Notes: a model not told the origin generated them from the sequence alone. Shown: positions 2,419 through 64,000, counted from the first letter of the stretch. The stretch is DNA of 64,000 bases from a virus (IMGVR_UViG_3300042922_001018), one strand, 5' to 3'. Numbers and translations are program-made.

Positions 2419-3387
2419 ATGGGGGCCGGGCCAGAACACTCTGACATAGCTGTCGAGACTCTTCTATGCCAGATGGATGCCTCGAAAGAAGCTCGTCAAG
2501 GGGCGAGAGAACTTCACAACGCTGCGGAGTTCTTCCGGTTCCTCTCTGTTTCCGGGGGAGTAGACAGAGACGGGAAGGAACTCTCCCTGGAAGACAGCAG
2601 GGATTGGGAGAATCGACTATCTCGTCTGGACCGGTGGGCAGGCCTTATCTCGCGGACCGAAGCTGGGGTACAGCGCCAAGAAGAATCCGAGATGGAAGAC
2701 CCCTACGGACCGATGTTCGAGGACGAGCCAGACGAGGATGAGGACGACGATTTGTTCCCCTATATGGGACTCGCGCCGCGAAGCCCTACCACCAGGGACA
2801 TCGCTATCTTCCTAGTAGCGGCATACTTCTATGTTGCGGCCCCCGGTGCGAATGATGAAGTCTACCTTAGCGGGTTTGATGATGATGATGATGATGATGA
2901 TGATGATGATGATGATGATGATGATGATGATGATGATGATGATGATGATGATGATGATGATGCCAGCAACTACCCTCTCATCGACTATCCGATTCGTTGG
3001 CTGTTCGAAGCGTGTCCCCCTTCGGAAGCCCCTCTCGGCTTATACGAGCTTGATGCCCTGGAGCAGTTATGGAAGGCGGGCGTTACATCAGAATGGGTAC
3101 GCCGTCTACCTCTCGCCTCATGGCCCCGCCAGTGGAGCGAATTCGTTGGACCGTACCAAGACAAGGTGCCCGCTGAGTACGCAATCTTGCGCATGGACCC
3201 CACCCTTGCATACTCAGTCAGTCTTGTAGACCAAATCGCTGGTCTTTCTGTACCCGCAGAATACGCGATGGCAGCCTATTTGGTACCATCGGGGGAAGAA
3301 GCAAGAAGGCCTAGCAAGCTAGCTGCGATGCTAGCTTGGGGTTACGCGAACGGCCAACCCCCGGAGTATCTATCCGCAATATGGTGA
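2419..3387 (+). CDS. PxEY-tail family protein with 28-residue poly-Asp tract (only + strand member)
   Basis: KVPAEY, SVPAEY and terminal GQPPEYLSAIW; extended -10 TGaTACACT at 2403-2411. Confidence 0.75.
   Translation: MGAGPEHSDIAVETLLCQMDASKEARQGARELHNAAEFFRFLSVSGGVDRDGKELSLEDSRDWENRLSRLDRWAGLISRTEAGVQRQEESEMEDPYGPMFEDEPDEDEDDDLFPYMGLAPRSPTTRDIAIFLVAAYFYVAAPGANDEVYLSGFDDDDDDDDDDDDDDDDDDDDDDDDDDDDASNYPLIDYPIRWLFEACPPSEAPLGLYELDALEQLWKAGVTSEWVRRLPLASWPRQWSEFVGPYQDKVPAEYAILRMDPTLAYSVSLVDQIAGLSVPAEYAMAAYLVPSGEEARRPSKLAAMLAWGYANGQPPEYLSAIW
2878..2961 (+). repeat. Perfect (GAT)28 trinucleotide microsatellite
   Basis: 28 uninterrupted GAT units, in frame as Asp. Confidence 0.95.
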
Positions 3388-3552
3388 GCTAACCTCTCGT
3401 TATTAACGGCGCAGCCGACGCGCTTCGACGACGATGGCGGTACCTCTCCGGCAGTCTCGGAGGGACGATGTAGCTGTTGTTTGAACGGTCCTCTACAAGG
3501 AGACCATGATGCAGACTCAACGTCACTATCTACCGCATGAGCCGCTGGCGAG

Positions 3553-5553
3553 TCACTTCTCACCCACGAAGTCTGCGAACTCCTCCGGCGTCATGACCTT
3601 GACGCCCAGCTCTTCGGCCTTCGCGAGCTTCGAGCCAGCACCCTCACCCGCGACGAGGAGCGAGGTCGTCTTCGAAACGGAACCGGAGGACTTGCCACCG
3701 CGGCGCTCGACCAGTTCGTTCATCTCGTTGCGGCTGTACTTCGCCAGGACGCCCGACATACCGCCGGAGACCACAACACGCATGCCCGCCAGTGGGAGGG
3801 CGTCAGAATCGCTCACAGGGGCCGTAGCGACCGTATTCAGGGGCACGCCTGCCGCCAGGAGCTTCGCGATGACCGGTCGGTTGCGCTGGACACCCTCGAA
3901 GAACAGGTTCGCGCGCTCGTCGCCGACACCCTCCACACGGAAGAAGTCATCGCGACTCGCCGCGAGCACCGCGTCAATGGTCTCGAACTCGGAAGCGATG
4001 CGACGGCCGAAGGTGCGACCCGACTTGCGGATGCCGAGCGCCGTGATGAAACGGGAGAGCGGCTGCTCCTTCGCCTTCGCGATGTTCTCGACCAGCTTCG
4101 TCGCGACCTTCTCGCCGAGCAGGCGGACCGAGCCGTTCGGCTGTGCGAGACGGAGGTTCGTGAGCACCGGGACCGTCAGGGTGAACAGGTCACCGATGTC
4201 GGCCACGAGTTCGTTCTCGACGAGGGCCACAGCAATCTCGTCGCCCAGACCGTCGATGTCCAGAGCATCACGAGAGGCGGCGTAGGCGATGGACGAACCG
4301 AGGCTCGCCTCCGGCGCCAGCGAACGCCAAATCTTGCCGCTCGTGTCCAGCGGCTCGCCGGAGACGGGGCAGACACGCGGCGGGTCGTACGGAACCGCCG
4401 ACGACGGGCGAAGCTCAATGAACGGCTTCACCACGCGGGGGATGATTTTGTTCGCCTTGTAGACCTCGATGGTGTCACCGATGCGAAGGTCATTGTCACG
4501 GATGAAGTCGAAGTTGTGGAGCGTCGCCCGCGAGATGACCGAGCCGTCCACCTTCGTCGGGTCGTAGATGGCCGTGAACGAGATGTTGCCGGTGCGGCCG
4601 ACGGCCATCTCAATGTCGCGGAGAACCGAAACGCCCTTCACGTCGTCGTACTTGTAGGCCAGCGCCCACTTCGGAGCGCGACTGCCCTCACCCATGCGGC
4701 GGCACACGTCGGCGTTGTTCACCTTGATGACGACACCGTCGGTCGGGTAGTCGAAGCGGTCGCGGTACTCACCGAACATGTTGATGTTGGCCTCGTAGTC
4801 CGCACCCTGAAGGTTCTGGTCCAGGTGCGCCGCGTCCAGCAGGTTCACGTTGAAGAACGTGTCCACGTAGCAGATGAACGTCATCCGCACGTCGTAGTCG
4901 AGGGTCTCCGCGCGGACCGAACCGGCGGTGGCGTTACGCGGGTTCGCGAACGCGGTCTTCCCGGCGGCGATGCGGTTCGCGTTGGAGAACTCGAAGTCGG
5001 AGTGAGACATCAGCATCTCGCCACGAAGCTCCAGCTCAGCGGGCGCGTTGTCGAGGAACGTCGGCAGCCCACGGACAGCGACCTGGGGACGGGCGAGACG
5101 CGCGGTGACATCCTCACCGGCACGACCGTCGCCGCGCGTGACGACCTGGACCAGGCGACCGTTACGGTACACGGCGCGCATCGCCATGCCGTCGAGCTTC
5201 GGCTCAACGCGAAGCATGATGCGCGACTTCGGAACGCCGATGGCCTCCGCGGCCTCCTCCGCACGGGCGAAGAGCGCGTGGACCTCATCCATCGTCCTCG
5301 CCTTATCGAGCGAGAGCATCGGGGTCGGGTGCGCCACATCGGCGGTGGCCGCGGTGCCCGCAGCGACCTTCGTGTGCAGGCCGTGGTCGATGGCGTCGTC
5401 GGGGTTCGAGGTCTCGTACTGCTCGATGGTCTCGACGAGGGTGTCGTACTCGGAGTCGGTCATCAGCTCGTCGGTGCCGTTGTAGTAGGCGTCGGCAGCT
5501 TCGAGTGCGCGGGAGACAGCGGACTGGTATGCAGCGGAGTCGGTGAAAGCCAT
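3553..5553 (-). CDS. ligA: NAD-dependent DNA ligase
   Basis: YYNG/DSEYD domain Ia, [14 protein letters not shown] adenylation motif, [20 protein letters not shown] fold, HhH motifs, C-terminal BRCT; start moved to ATG 5553. Confidence 0.97.
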
Positions 5554-5559
5554 GAGCCT

Positions 5560-62706: not shown

Positions 62707-62738
62707 GGACTCAGTCTAGAGTCGGCATGGTCTCGATG

Positions 62739-63590
62739 TCAAGCCAGAAGGTACTCCAGCGGGATGCCGTCGGAGTACGCGGCGATGATGCGTTCGATGG
62801 TGAGCTGTTCGTCTTCTGGCGTCTCCCGCTGCCGAATAGCCTGGTCCGCGTCCGCGACGTAGTTCGCATCGACGCCGTTCTGGTACATCTCCACGATGAG
62901 GTGCGCGTTCGAGTACAGCTTGCCGGTGATGCATGAACTGAGCGTGTTGGCATACGCCGTCGGGACGCCGCCCTGGTGCAGCGTTTTCAGTGCCTCCGCG
63001 GTGAAACCTCCGAGGCCGATTCGCGCGTTCGTTACCACATCCGCGGAGCCGATGTAGTCGGCCGGTACTCCTGAGGCTAGGGCATCCTGGGCCAGCCGGA
63101 CGATGTTGCCATCATCGAGGCGATGGCGCCGGAAGACCGCTCGGCTCGCTGGAACGCCGTGGTTCAGGATGAACGATACCGGTTCGACGAGCTGCCCTTC
63201 GTCCGGGGTGTAACCGGTGTACCGGCCGACGATGTTGAAGTACACCGCTACCGCTTCCGCTATTTCAGGGGTCGGACGCTCTTGTGCGCTCCGGCTCAAC
63301 GGTCCAGGTGCGTGCATGGCTGCTTTCGGCCGGAGCGCACCGGGGACGCCCGCCAATGTGGTCAGCATCAGCATTCCGCCGCCCTTCGCTTCGACACCTT
63401 TCCGCGCGGTACCGTCGTGGAGCATCTGAAGGGCTAGGTTCTCGCCGTGACCTTCGAACATCATTTCGAAGTACCGGTAGAACTGGTCCCAGTTCTTAAA
63501 GGCATCTGCCACCCAGACTGCTGTACCGCTGCCCGGCATGACGTTCCAACGTTCGAGCATCCGTTCGATGCGCTGGTCTCGGTGAATCAT
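62739..63590 (-). CDS. PxEY-tail family protein, HxD N-module subfamily
   Basis: HRDQRIERMLERW...FKNWDQF; GVPADY, GVPTAY, GVDANY, GIPLEYLLA*. Confidence 0.85.
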   Translation of the reverse strand: MIHRDQRIERMLERWNVMPGSGTAVWVADAFKNWDQFYRYFEMMFEGHGENLALQMLHDGTARKGVEAKGGGMLMLTTLAGVPGALRPKAAMHAPGPLSRSAQERPTPEIAEAVAVYFNIVGRYTGYTPDEGQLVEPVSFILNHGVPASRAVFRRHRLDDGNIVRLAQDALASGVPADYIGSADVVTNARIGLGGFTAEALKTLHQGGVPTAYANTLSSCITGKLYSNAHLIVEMYQNGVDANYVADADQAIRQRETPEDEQLTIERIIAAYSDGIPLEYLLA

Positions 63591-64000
63591 GCGACGAGGT
63601 ATTCGGCTGGGATGCCTTCGGTGAAGGCGGCGAGTACGGCATCGAAGGGGAGCCGGTCGATGAGGTCGAGGTCTCCGACGACCATTGCGTTGTTCACGGT
63701 CATCAGGTACTCGGCGGGGACACCCATCTCGTAGACACGGATGAGCTTCTGGGCCTGTGAACCGACACCACCGAGGTGGCAGGCCACGAGTGACCGGGCA
63801 TATTCGACGGGCACACCGGCTCGTTCGATAATGGCGATGTCCTGCGGCTTGTATCCGCCGTGTCCGTACTCCTTGGCCACCTCATAGGTGAACGGGATGT
63901 CCCGAATGAACTCGGGTGAGGCTCCGGCGTCGAGCGCCTGTGTCGCCTGGATGCGGATGCCGGACTCCAGGATGTCATGGGTCTGGGAGATGGTGCGGAG
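63587..64000 (-). CDS. PxEY-tail family protein, 5'-partial (runs off window)
   Basis: Frame open to 64000; GASPEF, GVPVEY, GVPAEY, GIPAEYLVA*. Confidence 0.85.
   Translation of the reverse strand, partial: LRTISQTHDILESGIRIQATQALDAGASPEFIRDIPFTYEVAKEYGHGGYKPQDIAIIERAGVPVEYARSLVACHLGGVGSQAQKLIRVYEMGVPAEYLMTVNNAMVVGDLDLIDRLPFDAVLAAFTEGIPAEYLVA

Follow-up and report, generated by a model that had tools for sequence, protein, structure and literature searches.

The 64,000-nucleotide stretch of the viral sequence IMGVR_UViG_3300042922_001018 analyzed here, referred to below as the window, is filled for the most part by closely packed genes, and dozens of the encoded proteins end in versions of the sequence G-[IV]-P-x-E-Y. 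A preliminary description of this DNA had taken the ending for a terminal tag, its minimal conserved unit being a short terminal element and not a domain. Our analysis leads to a different picture. G-[IV]-P-x-E-Y is the turn and helix start of a two-helix repeat of about 26 residues, and we are very confident that the genes encode a repeat-domain family rather than carriers of a terminal tag. The explanation that we find best as a whole, and regard as fairly probable, is a repeat-solenoid family in which variable front parts (heads) are joined to what would be a binding or scaffold module. We describe a newly discovered domain, deployed in the genome in an unusual way, and do not claim to have demonstrated a new system.

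The repeat unit and its carriers in the window

Membership was assessed over the 103 genes called from position 5586 onward. The C-terminal pattern proposed in the preliminary description was found within the last 16 residues of 46 of the 103 proteins, against 0.08 expected from shuffled sequences (maximum 2), and within the last 30 residues of 54. When it was relaxed to the five-residue core [IVLM][PASD]x[ED][YFL], 72 of the 103 proteins matched within their last 30 residues, compared with 4.2 expected from shuffles. All 39 strict instances of G[IV]PxEY are encoded by different 18-mers (39 in total), so the motif is conserved at the protein level, as had been stated. A DNA-level repeat or gene conversion is ruled out as the origin of the motif, since the codons differ in every instance.

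A hidden Markov model (HMM) of the repeat, built from the motif instances, scored 59 proteins at 10 bits or more, a level reached by none of 618 reversed or shuffled decoys. Profile-profile comparison with hhalign added 33642-34439, 62146-62706, 50270-50653, and 50643-51371 at probabilities above 92%, while ten negative controls stayed at or below 2.5%. The probability was just 3-66% for 16722-20696, 24347-25474, 26005-27804, 32380-33048, 48769-49793, and 58023-58559. Combining the HMM, weaker HMM hits, and the profile-profile comparison, we count 65 robust members, 15 borderline members, and 23 non-members. The earlier estimate that about 84 of 112 genes carry the motif thus holds for the strong C-terminal enrichment, with the number revised to 80 members among 103 genes. 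It had also been stated that the proteins of 16722-20696 and 24347-25474 keep only the last motif, but membership there is itself doubtful (hhalign 3-37%). In the first of these blocks, some proteins carry an extension of 15-25 residues after the hP-x-EY element; 17238-17738 is robust by HMM, and 17726-18214 is a non-member.

At a threshold of 8 bits the window holds about 111 copies of the repeat, and 33 of the 65 robust members have two to four of them. Significant copies (n = 105) are internal as often as terminal (53 and 52, respectively), and the spacing between successive copies is mostly 24-26 residues. Each unit consists of a hydrophobic-patterned helix A, a turn, and a helix B, with an aromatic residue often found three positions before the glycine. 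The signature reads G (84%), V/I (89%), P (73%), any residue, E (77%), Y (89%), A (56%), any residue, A, L; positions outside it carry 0.4-1.0 bits. A copy lies at the very C terminus of about 66 proteins, and in most members the stop follows 3-7 residues past the tyrosine, at the end of the last helix B.

AlphaFold, given a 47-sequence alignment, predicted the last 91 residues of 9079-9897 as six helices arranged in three hairpins (pLDDT 89.7, pTM 0.78). For the full 276-residue protein of 8252-9082, it predicted a β-rich head, with less confidence, and then eight helices at pLDDT 86-98. According to these models, the copies stack into a short α-helical solenoid. The conserved residues fit roles in the predicted fold, with the glycine in the turn, the proline and glutamate opening helix B, and the tyrosine, alanine, and leucine on one buried face, a burial deduced from helical periodicity and not from model coordinates. 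The internal copies, the multicopy members, and the predicted solenoid all run counter to the view of a short terminal element: the motif belongs to a tandem two-helix repeat. Among 68 tails the last residue varies widely, being A in 16, R in 9, G in 7, L in 7, V in 6, and another residue in the rest, which rules out an ssrA-like C-terminal degron with a uniform end of the form ...Y-A-L-A-A.

Relatives of the repeat outside the window

A profile built from 17 window sequences only (profile A1) was searched against 1.84 billion proteins, as representatives of clusters at 50% identity. Matches at E ≤ 1e-3 numbered 1,040 representative proteins, of which 344 reached E ≤ 1e-10. The best matches had E values of 1e-37 to 1e-44 summed over 5-13 copies, and M56 proteins were matched at E 2e-37 and below. 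The top 150 matches comprise three classes: small soluble proteins ending in the repeat, as in the window; proteins of 330-520 residues that begin with a hydrophobic N-terminal segment, in some cases with a lipoprotein-like cysteine; and proteins of 580-1,190 residues, where six of the ten top matches tested are Peptidase_M56. As far as sequence goes, these matches show that the window repeat is homologous to the repeats in the M56 tails and in the likely lipoproteins.

BlaR1 has its extracellular sensor beyond the last membrane segment. In 24 of the 33 long matches with HExxH, three or four hydrophobic segments precede HExxH, exactly one lies between HExxH and the array, and none follows the array. 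The M56 proteins with the repeat therefore have the BlaR1 layout, the array standing in place of the sensor domain, and by analogy with BlaR1 topology these arrays would face outward. One M56-repeat gene overlaps the end of a preceding Penicillinase_R (BlaI-type repressor) gene. Few cellular homologues have a recorded phylum, Planctomycetota and Acidobacteriota among them. The repeat is thus not private to the element: BlaR1-type M56 proteases of other phyla carry it as their predicted outer tails. Proteins of the small soluble class, which combine a head with repeats, were encountered only on metagenomic contigs that are related to the element. A tblastn search with a five-repeat protein drew no match from either PLSDB plasmids or INPHARED phages. 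Profile A1 found none in 4 genomes or in 401 sampled Actinomycetota genomes, a search with no positive control that says nothing on absence.

That the repeat has no named family, as first suggested, was borne out: Pfam gave no match above the curated cut-off, PHROGs gave none, and a sequence-profile search of the PDB returned nothing below E 0.2. When 47 repeat modules were scanned against Pfam at a permissive cut-off (E ≤ 10), the only matches were scattered subthreshold ones to small helix-turn-helix-like models. Fold searches (Foldseek against the PDB, VIA-align wide, and AlphaFold DB clusters) found no natural fold above noise. The best structural matches were de novo designed helical repeats, with Z scores of 6.2 (PDB 8v2d chain J; root-mean-square deviation 4.1, 91 aligned) and 4.5. 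The likeness to these designs (8v2d chain J, 5cwg) is one of generic two-helix solenoid geometry, at scores within the noise range of helical repeats, and they are artificial, unlike the window repeats. A structure search of the ESM Atlas returned unannotated clusters, M56 protease clusters, and SHOCT-like_DUF2089-C clusters at TM 0.55-0.57 (about 0.5-0.6), and a feature search of the same resource gave no usable match. Literature searches turned up no account of either the repeat or these elements.

Variable heads and the genes that encode them

BLASTP among the window proteins left 86 of 108 as singletons, and 56 of 97 N-terminal parts stayed singletons after an iterated profile search. The heads are therefore mostly unrelated, in line with the preliminary description, and include several small tandem-duplicate groups. 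The iterated search also gave one 20-member head cluster, which degenerate upstream repeats may drive. Out of 101 array proteins, three have Pfam matches (DUF3039, DUF4031, and HAD_SAK_2), all of them non-members, and four match PHROGs families of unknown function. The head encoded by 8252-9082 has invariant cysteine and histidine residues (C-x3-C-x-G-W-x-E-C ... H) and matches phrog_13452; it may bind metal. Tail-less homologues of this head, 158-167 residues long, are found, for example, in Gulosibacter sp. 10. Because the head occurs alone elsewhere, the tail is an add-on and the fusion is modular. The proposed layout of a variable body and a constant terminal part is upheld in this form, as a variable front with a constant C-terminal module. 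A strong hydrophobic segment was seen in 16 called window proteins, about 10 of which are repeat members; from flanking charges, a crude estimate, the C terminus is cytoplasmic in most but not all.

The window has a G+C content of 62% and, by exact protein matches, corresponds to ~142-206 kb of the metagenome contig Ga0456364_0000048 (JGI; 450,372 bp), an extrachromosomal-type soil contig with actinobacterial features. In a search of sequencing runs, the stretch was present in three soil DNA runs; no near-identical phage DNA was found, and tRNA and Rfam scans of the window found nothing. Our own codon-bias gene call gave 108 genes, of which 100 occupy the minus strand between 5586 and the window end (Table 1). 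Of the 99 junctions between minus-strand genes, 53 are overlaps (exactly 4 bp in 30 cases), and coding sequence makes up 93% of the DNA across both array parts. An additional open reading frame (ORF) beyond array part B runs off the window end.

The arrays are collinear on contigs from other samples. An 88-kb contig (L008) matches the window from the ligase to the DUF3039 gene, a 55-kb contig (L005) matches 21.5-44.7 kb, and a 63.5-kb contig from another sample (L004) matches 48.7-63.9 kb; a further contig, L007, belongs to the NCBI assembly GCA_011800935.1. Array members have full-length positional orthologues that are 22-77% identical, whereas interspersed and flanking non-array genes are 82-95% identical (ligase, 82% on L008; DUF4031, 93-95%; DUF3039, 86%). 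It follows from this synteny and this difference in identity that the array is an old, stably inherited, and fast-evolving gene set, not a shuffling cassette library. Over 36 orthologue pairs, tails are 46% and heads 40% identical. The ligase is only ~40-43% identical to the best chromosomal ligases found, those of Streptomyces, Kitasatospora, and relatives; used as a probe of species genomes, it recovered chromosomal ligases alone and not the element. Protein P0171, on a 394,845-bp contig from other samples, is an orthologue of the 8252-9082 protein, and such a size class recurs.

Table 1. Coordinates of array parts, repeat members, interspersed and flanking genes, and the candidate control region (window positions)
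Feature	Position	Strand	Basis and remarks
Array part A, 75 called genes	5586..47592	-	Own gene call; closely packed, often overlapping; mostly head-plus-repeat proteins
Array part B, 25 called genes	47679..63880	-	Gene call and HMM; 22 robust members
Robust members, 1 copy ≥8 bits	5805-6572; 17238-17738; 20975-21490; 21990-22643; 22645-23253; 26005-26778; 27906-28448; 28445-29089; 29086-29613; 29610-30260; 33058-33450; 33642-34439; 34472-35254; 35251-36507; 37868-38575; 38572-39201; 39201-39821; 41696-42424; 43399-43875; 47679-48146; 49786-50277; 50270-50653; 50643-51371; 51355-51873; 54479-55183; 56004-56444; 56462-56971; 56964-57530; 57530-58009; 60777-61343; 61376-62149; 62146-62706		
Robust members, 2 copies ≥8 bits	5586-5795; 6780-7076; 7081-7455; 7452-7739; 7736-8014; 8011-8262; 10651-11346; 11385-11702; 13886-14419; 14822-15313; 40745-41296; 43969-44736; 45710-46633; 53145-53624; 53617-54441; 55180-55971; 59411-60172; 60169-60780		
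Robust members, 3 copies ≥8 bits	8252-9082; 9079-9897; 9929-10654; 12087-12590; 12607-13059; 13353-13889; 15313-15909; 31844-32215; 40179-40748; 42421-42768; 44733-45677; 62739-63590; 63587-63880		
Robust members, 4 copies ≥8 bits	51905-52675; 58556-59323		
Three tandem mini-members (95, 92, and 83 residues)	7452..8262	-	~45-residue head and two repeats exactly 26 residues apart; stop 3 residues after EY
Cys/His-rich β-type head with four two-helix repeats	8252..9082	-	PHROG phrog_13452; tail residues ~156-272; AlphaFold
Member with last 91 residues (three repeats) modeled	9079..9897	-	AlphaFold
Member with four copies	58556..59323	-	Head kin to heads of 53617-54441, 55180-55971, and 59411-60172
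97-residue member, almost entirely repeat (three copies)	63587..63880	-	HMM
Four tandem members: hydrophobic segment at the N terminus, single terminal repeat	27906..30260	-	Hydropathy, flanking charges, HMM
Three membrane-anchored members	37868..39821	-	Hydropathy, flanking charges, HMM
Borderline block, proteins of 124-168 residues, single hP-x-EY element	16722..20696	-	HMM <5 bits except 17238-17738; hhalign 3-37%
Borderline paralogue trio ending W-x-x-L-A-x-[IL]-P-x-EYA	24347..25474	-	BLASTP cluster; HMM 1.6-6.0 bits; hhalign 23%
Divergent weak member, four degenerate copies	2419..3387	+	Summed HMM 11.3 bits, no single copy significant
DUF4031 protein, non-member inside array	13052..13348	-	Pfam 1e-18
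DUF3039 protein, non-member inside array	20698..20943	-	Pfam 7e-24
HAD_SAK_2-type protein, non-member inside array	25471..25995	-	Pfam 1.8e-06, sole HAD_SAK_2 match in 101 array proteins
NAD-dependent DNA ligase, array flank	3553..5568	-	Pfam; synteny anchor, rate yardstick
Control region between array parts (candidate)	47623..48202	.	Three perfect TCGAAC-N4-GTTCGA boxes and a sigma-70-like promoter

The left window edge holds a Fic protein, the NAD-dependent DNA ligase, and two unannotated genes; the Fic/DOC protein lies at 11-733 on the plus strand. The divergent plus-strand protein of 2419-3387 contains an uninterrupted run of 28 aspartates, has a low GC3 of 0.54, and is called as a 304-residue gene on the source contig. 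The HAD_SAK_2 gene was assigned through its positional orthologue on L005, which carries HAD_SAK_2. On the minus strand at 24128-24313, the array encodes a 61-residue protein that is nearly all hydrophobic, with a positional orthologue on L005 that is 71% identical. The longest stretches without a minus-strand array gene are 48147-48768, 52676-53144, and 36508-37443. The first two contain no convincing ORF, and the third contains a well-scoring plus-strand gene at 36692-37396 (234 residues, no family).

Perfect TCGAAC-N4-GTTCGA palindromes occur at 47623-47638, 47658-47673, 48187-48202, and 58200-58215, and three more carry one mismatch (0.34 expected). Three of the four perfect palindromes flank the gene 47679-48146. 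A sigma-70-like promoter (TTGACA, 18 nt, TATGCT; minus strand, 48171-48142) stands before that gene, just downstream of the 48187 box. We take TCGAAC-N4-GTTCGA to be the mycobacterial/actinobacterial LexA box, and on the strength of these sites part of the array may be under SOS control.

Candidate roles and comparison with known systems

The shared ending is the last copy of a tandem ~26-residue repeat made of helix A, a G-[IV]-P turn, and a helix B running from P-x-E-Y-A, and modules of one to four such copies are joined to mostly unrelated, unannotated front domains. In the mechanism that we propose, the solenoid would act as a surface for binding or scaffolding by which many heads attach in one common manner to a partner or structure. 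Members lacking a hydrophobic segment would probably be cytoplasmic. We hold only tentatively, at a little short of an even bet, that the tail is a common docking or scaffold module of this kind; a shared binding or scaffold module is favored over a sorting signal. Several points weigh against this proposal. The conserved residues may have a purely structural role, and because all of them can be explained by the fold, their conservation alone does not imply one common docking partner. The export context differs as well: the cellular homologues are predicted to be extracytoplasmic and most members here have no export signal, and the function of the repeat may differ accordingly between the two. 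The 15 borderline genes show weak hhalign support for membership, and no RNA holder of the stretch was listed in the sequencing-run search.

Were the tail instead an address label, by which a machine of the element exports, transfers, or packages more than 100 different cargo heads, it would resemble, by analogy only, the Xanthomonas XVIPCD, type IX C-terminal domains, and phage capsid-targeting sequences. The copies at the very C terminus, most of them ending at a narrow distance from the stop, would suit such a label, as would the diverse, unannotated heads and the giant mobile-type contig that carries them. Half of the copies are internal, however, their number varies from one to four, the terminal residues are heterogeneous, and the ~14 membrane-anchored members have mixed predicted orientations. 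The repeat also occurs in long arrays of membrane proteases and lipoprotein-like proteins that have targeting of their own, and we consider a label quite unlikely. A generic scaffold like ankyrin or TPR would need no common partner, each tail binding its own target through a variable surface while the motif keeps the fold. The low information content outside the signature agrees with this, as do the divergence of paralogous tails (18-42% identical to a reference tail), the orthologous tails that are barely more conserved than the heads, and the use of the repeats as the input domain of sensor proteases in cellular homologues. Such a scaffold nevertheless leaves the strict C-terminal placement in all small members unexplained, and a single-copy tail of ~26 residues offers little surface for specific recognition; we judge it unlikely.

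Tails might also associate with one another, forming homo- or hetero-oligomers by repeat stacking. The helices are amphipathic, a lone repeat would expose hydrophobic faces according to the model and alignment, and short C-terminal helical modules oligomerize in other proteins (discussed in PMC3581485). The same paper reports no oligomerization of the SHOCT domain that it tested, and self-association seems improbable to us. It is highly doubtful that the repeat binds a cell-envelope polymer in the manner of cell-wall-binding repeats and so anchors the heads at the envelope. The predicted outward position of the cellular arrays and the conserved acid and aromatic pair in each copy speak for such binding, but most members have neither a signal peptide nor a membrane segment, helical periodicity buries the tyrosine, and Pfam scans found no similarity to known wall-binding repeats. 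A helix-hairpin-helix or helix-turn-helix unit that binds nucleic acid would account for two helices with a glycine turn and for the subthreshold Pfam matches to HHH_5, HTH_7, HTH_68, and AbiEi_4. This reading strikes us as extremely improbable: acidic residues prevail in the repeat regions (net charge -5.4 per 100 residues; member median pI 5.3), the homologous M56 arrays would lie outside the cell membrane, and no match reached a curated cut-off, HHH_5 itself appearing below cut-off in just 3 of 47 repeat modules. In a bolder, improbable extension of common docking, the solenoid would be a handle for one hub or machine of giant elements, which delivers or assembles more than 100 small effector heads at one place; the heads could, for example, enter a recipient or host cell together with the element DNA, under SOS control. 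If true, this would be a new and very large cargo-addressing system in actinobacterial mobile elements.

The repeat is widespread, being carried by no fewer than 1,040 representative clusters (50% identity), yet missing from Pfam, PHROGs, and PDB sequences, and a family definition would annotate thousands of proteins. It is the input end of many BlaR1-type sensor proteases, and in the window it is fused to dozens of unannotated proteins that fill most of the 64 kb. Its ligand would tell what the M56 sensor proteases detect and what the array does for the 450-kb element.

The M56 tails and the window repeats share the two-helix unit and the G-[IV]-x-x-E-Y core. The M56 tails have a period of 28-30 residues, compared with mostly 24-26 in the window, and T, S, or D usually takes their third core position, where the window has P. 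The M56 and lipoprotein-like proteins carry 5-13 copies behind a membrane protease or hydrophobic start, in arrays that end in a divergent cap ~32 residues before the stop, whereas window proteins have one to four copies behind their heads. M56-repeat genes are single and often paired with a BlaI-type repressor, whereas the window genes form arrays of dozens.

The closest described concept is SHOCT (PF09851), a domain of ~30 residues with two amphipathic helices and strongly conserved glycine and glutamate, which sits at the C terminus in 89% of its proteins, has many unrelated domains as fusion partners, and is of unknown function (PMC3581485, Eberhardt et al. 2013). The window repeat shares its approximate length, two amphipathic helices, conserved glycine and glutamate, and mostly C-terminal position, but differs in its tandem solenoid, its conserved proline and tyrosine, and its dozens of paralogues on one element. 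The SHOCT model (27-bit cut-off) was absent from hmmscan results for 10 members at E ≤ 1 and for 10 external proteins, and SHOCT was not among the 25 most frequent of the 63 Pfam families matched by the 47 repeat modules at E ≤ 10. The glycine-to-aromatic spacing of the SHOCT consensus also differs from that of the window repeat. Classical helical repeats have periods of 33-40 residues, compared with 24-30 in the repeat family described here, and ankyrin, TPR, Sel1, and HEAT gave no Pfam matches. Effector families with a constant module, in which many functional parts share one conserved module, are likewise large; the likeness is in logic only. Their modules have known recognition partners, and those of PE/PPE are N-terminal, unlike the window tails. 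No sequence or fold relationship was found to XVIPCD (Xanthomonas type IV), type IX C-terminal domains, poxvirus ankyrin/PRANC proteins, or mycobacterial PE/PPE. A helical repeat module fused to variable domains is thus known in kind; what is new is an uncurated repeat and the unusual scale of its use, in 65-80 genes of one window.

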